64,000 nt of DNA from an uncultured Gemmatimonadaceae bacterium (GTDB taxonomy: Bacteria; Gemmatimonadota; Gemmatimonadetes; Gemmatimonadales; GWC2-71-9): positions 64,166 through 128,165 of the forward strand of contig CAYUYF010000001.1 in the NCBI GenBank assembly GCA_964449145.1, in the 5' to 3' direction. How positions within the stretch are numbered: position 1 is the stretch's first letter; each line of letters begins with the position of its first letter. Below are positions 39,243-41,881 of this stretch, one piece after another. The translations under genes were made by a program, and so were the position numbers. The notes beneath the pieces are model-generated. The model did not search any database. It worked only from the letters and a program-made list of their open reading frames with translations, and was not told where the DNA came from.

Positions 39243-39848
39243 ATGTCCCTCGTCAACTTCACCACCCGCGAGATCACCTGCAAGATCGTGTACTACGGCC
39301 CGGGGCGTTCCGGGAAGACCACGAACCTGCAGTACATCTACGGCCGCGTGCCCGAGGCCCGCCGGGGCCGGATGGTCAGTCTCGCGACCCAGACGGACCG
39401 CACCCTGTTCTTCGATTTCCTGCCCATCGATCTGGGGGTCATCAGCGGATTCACCACCCGCTTCCAGCTGTACACCGTGCCGGGGCAGGTCTACTACAAC
39501 GCGACCCGCAAGCTGGTCCTGCAGGGCGCCGATGGCATCGTGTTCGTGGGGGACAGCCAGGCCCGCCGGCTGGAGGACAACATCGAGAGTCTGCAGAATC
39601 TGCAGTCCAACCTGCTGGCGCAGGGGGTCGATGTCCGCAACTTCCCCGTCGTCCTGCAGTACAACAAGCAGGATCTGCCGGCCGACCTCATCCTCCCGCC
39701 CGCCGACCTCGACGACGCGCTCAACTTCCGGGGCTACCGCAGCTTCCCCGCCGATGCGGTGCGCGGGGCGGGGGTGTTCGAGACCCTGAAGGGCATCTCC
39801 GAACTGGTGCTCAAGCGGCTGGCCGCCGGCGGCGCCGGAGCGGCCTGA
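39243..39848 (+). CDS. mglA: MglA, Ras-like small GTPase (mutual gliding-motility protein A family)
   Basis: 201 aa, close to M. xanthus MglA along its whole length. Contains '[25 protein letters not shown]', '[11 protein letters not shown]' (intrinsic Arg), '[12 protein letters not shown]' (the MglA-specific TxxGQ switch II in place of DxxGQ) and 'LQYNKQDLP' (NKxD). Confidence 0.93.
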
Positions 39849-41881
39849 TGACGCGGCTCAATCCCCGGCACCGCTTCGACGCGTACGTCGTGGGCGCGGC
39901 CAACCGCCTGGCGGTGACCGCCGCCCGGGCCGTGGCCGAATCGCCCGGCGCGGTGTACAACCCGCTCTTCGTGTATGCGAGTTCGGGATTGGGGAAGACC
40001 CACCTGCTGATGGCCATCGGGCATCTCGCCCTGGAGATCAATCCCCAGCTGACGGTCGAGTATCTGACCCTCGATGAGTTCATCGAGGCCTTTCACGCCG
40101 CCATCGCCGCCGGCCAGAGCGAGGCGTTCCGCCATCGCTACAGCGACACCGGCCTCCTGCTGGTGGACGATGTACAGTTCCTCACCCACCGGCGCGAAAT
40201 GCAGGCGGAGTTGCTCCGTCTGACCAACGCCGTCCTGACCGCCGGCCAGCAGATCGTCCTCTCCAGCGACCGGCCCCCCAACGAGATCGAGTCCCTCGAC
40301 GACCGTCTGATCCAGCGGTTCGCCGGCGGGCTGGTCATTGACATCGCCGGGCCCGACTACGAAACCCGGGTCGCGATCCTCCGGCGCCAGTCGGAGGAGC
40401 GGAAGGCCCAGTTCGACCCCAGCGTCATCGAGGCGGTGGCGGCGCTGCCCATCGGCAGCATCCGCGAGCTCATCGGTGCGTTCAACCGGCTCATCGCGTT
40501 TCAGGCCGTGAGCGAGGCGCCGCTCTCCTCCGCCGATGCCCGCGCGGTGCTTGCGCGGACCATGCCCGCCACCGTGCGCGGTGCGCCGGCGCCGGCGGCC
40601 GCGGTGGCGCCGGAGGGCGGCCCGGCTCCGCAGGAAGGGGAGGGAGGCGCCGGGCCACCGGCACCCGTCCCGGCGGCCGAGACCCCCTTTACGCTGGGCA
40701 GTGGCGACGAATTCGGCGCCTTCCTGAGCGAGATCTCCTCCGCGGTGGCGCGGCAGGTCGAGGCGTGGCGCGGCCGGGTAGCCGAGGCCGTGGTGCGCTG
40801 GGAAGGCGAAGGGTATCGCACCGAGCGGCTGCAGCGGCTCCTCCAGGGGGAGGCTCCGGTCGATCCCGACGCCGCGCTGCAGGACTTCGAGGACGATATC
40901 GCCCGGCTCAAGGAGTTGGCGGCAGAAGCCCATGAGCTCGATTCCAGCATGGTCGCCCGGCCGATGTTCCACGATCCCGACCGGCTGACCGAAGCGGAAG
41001 CCGAGCTGGTGCGGGCCCGCGAGGGCCTGAGCCCTCCGCCCAGCCCCTCGCCGCTGTGGCGGCTGGAGGAGTTCGCCGAGTCGGCCGCCAACAAGGAGGC
41101 CCTCGGCGCCATCCGGTCGGTGCTGGCGGAACCGGGCGGACACTACAACCCCCTGCTCATCGTCGGCGGCAGCGGGGTGGGCAAGACCCATCTGCTTCAC
41201 GCCATCGGCAACGCGCTGGCGCAGCCGGGGAGAATCGTCGCCTGCCTCGGGGCCGTGGATTTCGTGGACGACCTGATCAAGGCCATCGACCGCGACCGCG
41301 TGACCTGGTGGCGTGCGCGCTACCGCCGGATCGGGGCGCTGCTGCTGGACGACGTTCACCTCCTCGCGGGCAAGGACCGCACCCAGGAGGAACTCTTCTG
41401 GCTCTACAACCTGCTGGCTGAGGGCGGGCAGCAGATGGTATTCACCTCGGCCCAGCCGCCGGAGGCCCTGGAAGGGATCGAGCCGCGGCTGCGCACCCGG
41501 CTGGAAGCCGGGCTGGTGGTGGAGCTCCCGCCGCCAGACCGCGAGATCCGGGAGGTGATCACCGCCCGCCTGCTCCGCGACAAGGGGGGCGAGGCGGACC
41601 CCGACCTGACCGCCTACCTGGCGACCCGTCCGGTGGAATCGGTGCGCGCCCTCCAGGGGCTGGTCCAGCGGGTCATCGAAGCCGCGGACGCGGAAGCCGA
41701 ACGCCCCAACGCGGGCATCGCTCGCCGGGTGCTGGAGGGCACACCGGCGGGGCCAGCAAGGCGCACCAGCAGCGCCCGCACCAGCGGGCTGCTCTCGCCC
41801 ACCGGCAGTCTGCGCAGCCGGGAGAAGACCATCTGGGACTGGCCGGACGCCGCCGATCGCATCATCGAGGAGGCGCGCTGA
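39848..41881 (+). CDS. Tandem DnaA-type AAA+ ATPase (two DnaA domain-III modules; no domain I/II or DNA-binding domain IV)
   Basis: Module 1: '[18 protein letters not shown]', '[10 protein letters not shown]', 'IVLSSDRPP', '[26 protein letters not shown]' and '[12 protein letters not shown]'. Module 2: '[18 protein letters not shown]', '[10 protein letters not shown]', 'MVFTSAQPP', '[25 protein letters not shown]' and '[12 protein letters not shown]'. TGATG overlaps occur at both ends (39846-39850 and 41879-41883). Confidence 0.85.
   Translation: [677 protein letters not shown]

Follow-up and report, generated by a model that had tools for sequence, protein, structure and literature searches.

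In the 64,000-nucleotide window analysed here (positions 64,166 to 128,165 of contig CAYUYF010000001.1, from an uncultured Gemmatimonadaceae bacterium), the forward-strand open reading frame (ORF) 39848-41881 encodes a 677-amino-acid (aa) protein, named DnaA2x, which carries two copies of the ATPase domain (domain III) of the replication initiator DnaA. DnaA2x is not a replication initiator: it has no DNA-binding domain and its gene lies deep inside a 19-gene operon (window 30892-50711). It is a conserved operon partner of a protein combining PATAN and TPR domains (PATAN-TPR) and, in Gemmatimonadales, also of MglA/MglB and the Che proteins. On balance, DnaA2x is probably a non-replicative signalling protein derived from the DnaA ATPase domain, which may work as an ATP-dependent assembly switch or scaffold together with PATAN-TPR and MglA. 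To our knowledge, all known members of the DnaA/Hda branch of AAA+ ATPases act in replication initiation or in its control; with a phylum-wide family tied to MglA, PATAN-TPR and Che proteins, the use of the DnaA module would widen to protein-based signalling and polarity.

Domain architecture of DnaA2x

The gene and the regions of its product are given below in window coordinates.

39848..41881, + strand: DnaA2x gene (ORF and translation; PF00308 twice, no DnaA_C)
39848..40567, + strand: module 1 (aa 1-240), DnaA-type AAA+ core and lid (PDB alignment, TIGR00362, model), with Walker A SGLGKT (39986-40000), Walker B LLLVDD, sensor I SSDR, box VII RLIQRF and sensor II SIRE
40568..40708, + strand: Pro/Ala-rich disordered linker (aa 241-287; predicted local distance difference test score, pLDDT, and family alignment)
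40709..41047, + strand: acidic helical middle domain (aa 288-400; isoelectric point, pI, 4.55; conservation and AlphaFold2)
41048..41743, + strand: module 2 (aa 401-632), second DnaA-type AAA+ core and lid (PDB alignment, TIGR00362), with Walker A SGVGKT (41174-41188), Walker B LLLDD, sensor I TSAQ, box VII RLRTRL and sensor II SVRA
41744..41824, + strand: Ser/Arg-rich disordered tail (aa 633-659; pLDDT < 50 at 634-659, variable in the alignment)
41825..41878, + strand: near-invariant C-terminal motif REKxIWDWPxxxxRxIEExR (aa 660-677; family alignment)

Pfam scanning matched PF00308 (Bac_DnaA) over two stretches of DnaA2x (E 1.7e-95), in agreement with the first-pass annotation of this DNA, which had read two DnaA domain III ATPases in the 677-aa ORF from the letters alone. 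The scan revealed no match to PF08299 (DnaA_C) at E up to 0.01 and no DnaA N-terminal domain, bearing out the accompanying claim that domain I and the domain IV helix-turn-helix are missing; a scan of the same type matched PF08299 in the relative P0200, used as a positive control, at E 4e-24. On TIGR00362, the NCBIfam DnaA equivalog model, whole DnaA2x scored 456 bits against a cutoff of 343.9, which it passes because the scores of the two domain III copies add up: the single modules scored 261.5 bits (module 1) and 199.4 bits (module 2), each below the cutoff, and coverage was confined to profile positions ~102-339 of 437, without domain I and short of full length. On NF038214, used as a test for IstB/DnaC loaders, DnaA2x scored 91 bits against a cutoff of 200.

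The whole-protein TIGR00362 score (456 vs 343.9 bits), together with the name "chromosomal replication initiator protein DnaA" that the Joint Genome Institute (JGI) gives to many homologues, could be taken to mean that DnaA2x is the genome's own initiator, or else an artefact such as a fused or duplicated dnaA gene or a mobile-element loader of the IstB/DnaC type. The probability of such a reading is negligible, as it is effectively refuted by the absence of domains I and IV, by the summed origin of the score and by a fixed synteny. The architecture is moreover kept in many 50%-identity clusters, no transposase was detected near DnaA2x in Pfam scans of the neighbouring ORFs, and neither dnaN nor another replication gene was found among the ORFs scanned over about 0.5-57 kb of the window. 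PADLOC, which gave generic P-loop matches only, revealed no defence system nearby, and a reading of the locus as one was dropped. The JGI label is attached to most of the closest 120 homologues (P0001-P0120), which share 61-90% identity with DnaA2x over 95-100% of the query and belong to Gemmatimonadota where the organism is named. Since the tandem copies push the score past the equivalog cutoff, these homologues are mislabelled, and the naming of such proteins as DnaA is a systematic mis-annotation, of a kind that can mislead origin prediction and genome annotation.

Like DnaA2x, Hda and HdaA consist of DnaA domain III without a DNA-binding domain, and by acting through AAA+-to-AAA+ contact and an arginine finger they show that this module can be a pure protein-protein switch. 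Unlike DnaA2x, Hda has a single module, a replisome context and an N-terminal beta-clamp-binding motif of the QL[SD]LF type, which is the defining feature of Hda/HdaA; no such motif is present at the N-terminus of DnaA2x as read from the translation, and an N-terminal MTRLNPRxRF is common to the homologues. On the Hda model TIGR03420, the single modules scored 80.8 bits (module 1) and 95.8 bits (module 2) and the whole protein 170.2 bits, under the cutoff of 194.8. Judged by the TIGR00362 and TIGR03420 scores, both modules, module 2 included, are nearer DnaA than Hda.

Module 1 aligned without gaps to domain III of Bacillus subtilis DnaA (PDB 8bv3/8btg) at E about 1e-55; the alignment of module 2 to these chains (E 3e-41) has a single gap of two residues. 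The two modules are mutually 37% identical over 231 aa. An AlphaFold2 model built from a 66-sequence alignment had a mean pLDDT of 86.7, reaching 92-98 in module 1, and its superposition on 8bv3_A through module 1 gave a target TM-score of 0.94, a root-mean-square deviation (rmsd) of 1.5 A and 42% identity. The two-helix insertion between beta2 and beta3 that is specific to initiators is present in both modules (helices 75-87 and 91-99 between strands 70-74 and 103-107 in module 1; helices 469-481 and 485-493 between strands 463-468 and 495-501 in module 2), and the DnaA alignments are gapless across this region. DnaA2x thus has the same initiator-clade AAA+ fold, lid and two-helix insertion as domain III of DnaA from B. 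subtilis (8bv3/8btg), A. aeolicus (2hcb/3r8f) and T. maritima (2z4r), and it likewise carries the Walker A and B motifs, the box VII arginines and the sensor-II arginine. It differs from DnaA in the absence of domains I, II and IV, in its two modules per chain, acidic helical insert and C-terminal WxWP motif, in a module 2 without the sensor-I Asp, and in the location of its gene in a Che/MglA/PATAN operon, not beside dnaN. A likeness to p97 and Rix7 in the fold search was rejected as generic tandem AAA+ similarity (rmsd > 22 A). In a neighbour-joining tree with DnaA, the module 1s and module 2s of sampled high-GC members formed separate clades, which makes the duplication an old one; for positioning the family with respect to DnaA the tree is too coarse, and it was not relied on.

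In a motif census over the 66-member family alignment, both modules had the Lys of Walker A and the first Asp of Walker B in 66/66 members. The sensor-II Arg is present in module 1 of 63/66 members and in module 2 of 62/66, and the box VII arginine finger in module 1 of 50/66 and in module 2 (R551) of 61/66; the box VII arginines of DnaA2x itself are intact in both modules. Sensor I of module 2 reads FTSAQPP, with TSAQ for the TSDR of DnaA, and the DnaA sensor-I Asp is therefore lost: the equivalent of E. coli D269 is Ala, as in 34/66 members, against Asp in 7/66. The first-pass annotation had placed the Walker A codons of both modules correctly, and its further statement that both modules keep all catalytic residues holds for the Walker A Lys, the Walker B Asp and the sensor-II Arg but not for this Asp of module 2, where a DnaA-like 10-residue stretch is otherwise retained.

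The E. coli DnaA numbering used here was checked and places K178, D235, R285 and R334 correctly. V211 and R245, the positions reported to contact single-stranded DNA, correspond to His and Glu in module 1 and to Ile and Arg (R511) in module 2, R511 being kept in 50/66 members. One alternative built on such residues is that DnaA2x serves as a positioning ATPase on a nucleic-acid or nucleoid matrix, placing a Che/MglA complex in the manner of ParA-type proteins. ParA-like ATPases are known from che operons (PpfA in Rhodobacter, ParC in Vibrio), where they organise signalling complexes, and they offer a precedent for an ATPase of a DNA-transaction family encoded, like DnaA2x, inside a che operon; R511 would fit such a role, as would the retained two-helix insertion, which in DnaA filaments lines the pore binding single-stranded DNA. 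PpfA and ParC differ from DnaA2x in having a deviant Walker A ParA/MinD fold, not an AAA+ fold, and a mechanism that needs a nucleoid or polar landmark. DnaA2x and all its folded regions are acidic (pI 5.1 for the whole protein), the two contact positions are His and Glu in module 1, and the gene persists in lineages without che genes, all of which speak against a positioning ATPase and make it quite unlikely.

The segment of about 170 aa between the modules had been described as a Pro/Ala-rich and helical linker. Residues 245-287 fit that description, with pLDDT < 50 and a length and sequence that vary, with gaps, across the family, whereas residues 288-400 are a conserved and confidently folded helical domain. 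It is predicted to have four helices, carries the motifs DEFxxFL, WxxEGYxTxxL and FxDPDRxxEA, after which PPPxPSP follows, and reached a pLDDT of 88 and a predicted template modelling score (pTM) of 0.71 when modelled alone. Foldseek found no PDB fold match for this confident model (best E 7.7), and nothing significant was detected in PDB sequences by profile search, in Pfam or in NCBIfam. The Ser/Arg-rich tail noted earlier is likewise present, but it does not end the protein: the C-terminal motif follows, kept from 90%-identical to 31%-identical relatives and containing a short helix (668-676) in the model. This WxWP motif may be a docking peptide. A WxWP docking motif shared with the operon's Peptidase_MA protein was considered and dropped, since the DWGWP in the tail of that protein in the window is not kept in its orthologues, which retain only RRAALDxGW.

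Operon context and conserved synteny

The DnaA2x gene overlaps both neighbours by one base, as the first reading of the sequence had stated: its start overlaps the mglA stop in TGATG at 39846-39850, and its stop overlaps the start of the PATAN-TPR gene in TGATG at 41879-41883. The operon runs CheY-CheA-CheC-TPR-PATAN/TPR-TPR/Roadblock-Roadblock-MglB-MglA-DnaA2x-PATAN/TPR-CheR-CheD-CheB-CheW-CheW-TPR-Peptidase_MA-TPR, with the following features besides DnaA2x.

30892..33755, + strand: cheY (~30892-31245; CheY model of NCBIfam, E 5e-38), cheA (ends 33124, start uncertain; CheA domains) and cheC (33135-33755; CheC)
33640..36456, + strand: large TPR protein (<=938 aa, start codon uncertain; many TPR families, syntenic)
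36460..37608, + strand: first PATAN (DUF4388) and TPR protein (382 aa; PF14332 E 6.5e-33)
37601..38431, + strand: TPR and Roadblock fusion (276 aa; TPR_2 E 4.7e-12, Robl_LC7 weak at E 8e-4)
38428..38775, + strand: Roadblock/LC7 protein (115 aa; PF03259 E 5.8e-11)
38775..39239, + strand: MglB-like Roadblock protein (154 aa; PDB MglB 6h5b_B E 1.1e-7; NCBIfam MglB 31 bits, below cutoff)
39243..39848, + strand: group-1 mglA (201 aa; Myxococcus xanthus MglA 5ymx E 1.6e-72; 58-100% identity across loci)
41881..43500, + strand: second PATAN (DUF4388) and TPR protein (539 aa; PF14332 E 7.5e-37, and TPR)
43497..46755, + strand: cheR (43497-44327), cheD (44324-44812), cheB (ends 45869), cheW (45866-46300) and a further cheW (ends 46755), all from Pfam
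46752..47627, + strand: TPR protein (291 aa; Pfam, syntenic)
47608..48576, + strand: membrane-anchored Peptidase_MA_2 protein (PF13485)
48978..50711, + strand: TPR protein (577 aa), the last before mraW (Pfam, syntenic)

Besides a full Che set (CheA, CheB, CheC, CheD, CheR, CheY and two copies of CheW), the operon thus encodes MglA, two PATAN-TPR proteins and three proteins with a Roadblock fold; no chemoreceptor (methyl-accepting chemotaxis protein) was matched among the operon ORFs scanned over window 30892-50711. The Peptidase_MA_2 protein has an intact HEVAH motif, a hydrophobic segment at each end and the kept cytoplasmic tail RRAALDxGW. Upstream the operon is flanked by yggS-divIVA-ileS-rluD (23057-30316) and downstream by mraW-ftsI-murE-murF (50871-56986). 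Elsewhere in the window, two long ORFs on the + strand (3833-5485 and 28573-29547) had no Pfam match, and their status as genes is doubtful in GC-rich sequence.

As a whole, the operon looks like a compact, one-operon Frz-like pathway with MglA/MglB, in a phylum with cultivable species (Gemmatimonas) in which genetics is feasible. With the M. xanthus polarity system (Frz-MglA/MglB/MglC-RomR/RomX-SgmX) it shares a Che-type pathway, a group-1 MglA, Roadblock-fold partners and TPR proteins, and it differs in being a single operon and in having two PATAN-TPR proteins. No annotation resembling RomR or RomX turned up in the operon scans, although no search aimed at these proteins was made. We know of no DnaA-like component described in the M. 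xanthus system. The PATAN regulators PatA, PixE and PixG use this domain as their output, through which the pilus motor is bound, and the downstream neighbour of DnaA2x is a PATAN protein too; in cyanobacteria the PATAN domain is joined to a receiver domain, whereas that of the window is fused to TPR and paired with an AAA+ protein.

Synteny was analysed in 37 loci of GTDB species, with identity to DnaA2x down to 40%, and the gene order of the operon was identical in every locus reaching far enough. Among the 37, the sole exception to an origin in Gemmatimonadota is a 4-kb contig assigned to Solirubrobacterales, whose length and match coordinates are identical to those of a Gemmatimonadales contig (L019, L020). 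PATAN-TPR follows directly downstream in all GTDB loci with downstream sequence and also in L042, L046, L047, L048 and L049, the exceptions being L038 (PATAN upstream only), L045 (no PATAN) and L041 (unannotated neighbours). The more distant loci are arranged as follows.

L046: 38% identity; operon as in the window
L047: 38% identity; mgl/PATAN core with cheY and cheC, without cheA, cheW, cheR and cheB
L049: single-module protein (module 1, middle domain and C-terminal motif); operon otherwise identical
L042 and L048: homologue with a dead module 2; rluD, DnaA2x homologue, PATAN-TPR and Peptidase_MA only, no che or mgl genes
L038: 31% identity, low GC; upstream cheW-cheY-cheA-AAA-cheW-cheC-TPR-PATAN, no mglA
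L045 (9249-12939): receiver fusion P0211; Hpt-REC-Hpt-REC downstream, preceded on the other strand by a PAS histidine kinase and REC-HD

At L041:7373-15057, from a low-GC member of Gemmatimonadota, the tandem gene P0168 is flanked by large proteins without Pfam matches, and two bactofilin genes lie ahead of it; its surroundings have no annotated PATAN, che or mgl gene.

Genes for Che and MglA/MglB proteins are present in most lineages and missing in some, whereas Peptidase_MA accompanies the DnaA2x homologues in L042, L046, L047, L048 and L049, even where che and mgl are absent. In distant relatives, L042 and L048 among them, rluD still flanks the locus, and L046, L047 and L049 have an mraW or mraZ flank. 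Since L042 and L048 lack che and mgl yet have PATAN-TPR and Peptidase_MA, mglA is not the deepest partner; the main constant partners are PATAN-TPR and Peptidase_MA, and the link to mglA is common, not universal. The association with mglA, which the first-pass annotation left to be counted, accordingly extends to the Gemmatimonadales loci, where DnaA2x adjoins mglA, and breaks down in L042, L048 and L038, which have no mglA. The che and mgl genes look to have been added around an older core of rluD, DnaA2x, PATAN-TPR and Peptidase_MA.

The conserved position of the locus between divIVA-ileS-rluD and mraZ/mraW-ftsI-murE would also suit a regulator that couples replication to other processes, docking on DnaA-ATP in an Hda-like way through AAA+ contacts and an arginine finger and thereby linking initiation with the cell's polarity, its budding or its chemosensory state. 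Budding is the described mode of division in Gemmatimonas, and the modules are nearest to true DnaA (42% identity, TM-score 0.94, 261 and 199 bits on TIGR00362), with intact box VII arginines and, in module 2, the equivalents of V211 and R245. Such coupling is nevertheless rather unlikely, given that the N-terminus lacks an Hda-type clamp-binding motif, the Hda model stays under its cutoff (170 vs 194.8 bits), no replication gene occurs among the window ORFs scanned, and the fusions and neighbours (REC, Hpt, PATAN, MshEN, Che) all point to signalling or pili.

Family variants and proposed function

A search for relatives among 1.84 billion cluster representatives (clusters at 50% identity) recovered many full-length proteins with identity as low as 31%. 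Among the best 150 cluster representatives, 81 had two modules, ~117 the middle domain and at least 86 the C-terminal motif; 57 combined all three, as DnaA2x does. We propose a family of PATAN-linked DnaA-III proteins of Gemmatimonadota, defined by one or two DnaA-III modules, the acidic middle domain and a C-terminal EKxxWxWP motif, and by a PATAN-TPR gene directly downstream; DnaA2x would belong to it by both its architecture and its downstream gene. Every member whose organism is named by a source belongs to Gemmatimonadota. Several members depart from the complete form: in P0181, P0187 and others the P-loop and Walker B of module 2 are dead while an RLRSRF box is still there; single-module forms consist of module 1, middle domain and C-terminal motif (P0244), and the C-terminal motif is also found in P0261; and in P0211 a C-terminal receiver domain replaces the WxWP motif.

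Beyond this family, several adjacent genes encoding fusions of MshEN with DnaA-III (398-1990 aa) were found at L043:4309-15923 and L050:5797-15198. Those of L043 lie between a prepilin peptidase gene and pilB-pilT-pilC-pilS-pilR, and those of L050 (Candidatus Fermentibacteria) follow a prepilin peptidase gene, the locus ending before the pil motor genes. Like DnaA2x, these fusions carry a DnaA-III module without a DNA-binding domain and are encoded beside motility genes; unlike it, they have an N-terminal MshEN, no middle domain or WxWP motif, and a type IV pilus cluster in place of Che/MglA. After their own group, their best matches are the Gemmatimonadota tandem proteins, whose two modules inflate the scores. 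They constitute another non-replicative use of the DnaA ATPase, apart from that in DnaA2x.

The suggestion made in the first-pass annotation, that the ATPase was recruited into a polarity or signalling pathway, is backed by the synteny and by three independent variants, namely the receiver fusion (P0211 in L045), the relative in a CheA-CheC-TPR-PATAN setting without MglA (L038), and the MshEN-DnaA-III fusions in pilus clusters. Its further statement that no precedent existed inside a small-GTPase or chemosensory operon also held up: full-text literature searching yielded no publication in which a DnaA-like ATPase is tied to MglA, PATAN, chemosensory or pilus systems, and the DnaA-related proteins it brought up were Hda/HdaA, HdaB and the DnaA-like proteins of plasmids or viruses.

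For DnaA2x as a signalling protein, the following mechanism is proposed. Module 1 would be the working nucleotide switch, with the properties expected of DnaA-type modules, that is, tight binding of ATP or ADP, slow hydrolysis and head-to-tail assembly via the arginine finger. Module 2 is read as a regulatory partner that may supply an arginine finger or an interface, because some lineages have lost its ATP site or lack the whole module. TPR, PATAN or MglA partners may dock on the middle domain and the C-terminal peptide, and the nucleotide state might in this way gate the place or time at which the PATAN-TPR effector acts. With the nucleotide motifs and the two-helix insertion retained, an oligomerising switch or timer is plausible. 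Candidate outputs would be type IV pili, a polar flagellum, or the polarity of budding or division. The PATAN domain of PixE binds PilC and the N-terminal region of PilB1, which carries MshEN/GspE_N, and PATAN-GspE_N fusions exist (bioRxiv 10.1101/2021.06.11.447907); PATAN genes near mglA and mglB were already known (PMC4316618), and a polar flagellum has been seen in Gemmatimonas (PMC9862903).

Several observations weigh against this interpretation. The flanking of the locus by divIVA-ileS-rluD and the division and cell wall (dcw) cluster fits a cell-cycle role as well as motility. Module 2 has Ile and R511 at the single-stranded-DNA-contact positions, and nucleic-acid binding is therefore conceivable. 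In the alignment and census, some members (P0157 and P0190) lack both arginine fingers, and hydrolysis stimulated by an arginine finger in trans is therefore not universal in the family. The relative placement of the domains in the AlphaFold2 model is unreliable (pTM 0.50), and the contacts with partners are putative. In addition, the apparent restriction of the family to Gemmatimonadota is drawn from the subset of members for which a source names the organism.

A bolder version of the signalling role, conceivable though not probable, is that the DnaA-type AAA+ protein forms the core of an unrecognised class of polarity regulators, in which an ATP/ADP switch would stand beside the GTP/GDP switch of MglA. 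It would perhaps act as a polar landmark or as a regulator of the nucleotide state of MglA/PATAN-TPR, and perhaps report replication status via DnaA to the polarity or budding machinery.

Other proteins with DnaA-III modules

Three further proteins (P0200, P0263 and P0268) have two DnaA-III modules without the middle domain or WxWP motif, P0200 ending in DnaA_C, and they appear to be a different kind of tandem DnaA. P0267 (1248 aa; L044:10001-13747) has eight matches to the middle-domain profile, followed by one DnaA-III module; its neighbours in L044 are uninformative, and those encoding UQ_con, MgtE, H+-PPase and a Cas4-like protein look archaeal. A metagenome scan with the alignment of the low-GC subgroup returned almost entirely ordinary dnaA genes, the patterns having fallen on shared motifs. 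L051 was the sole family member recovered, and the order and sizes of its ORFs match the operon of the window.

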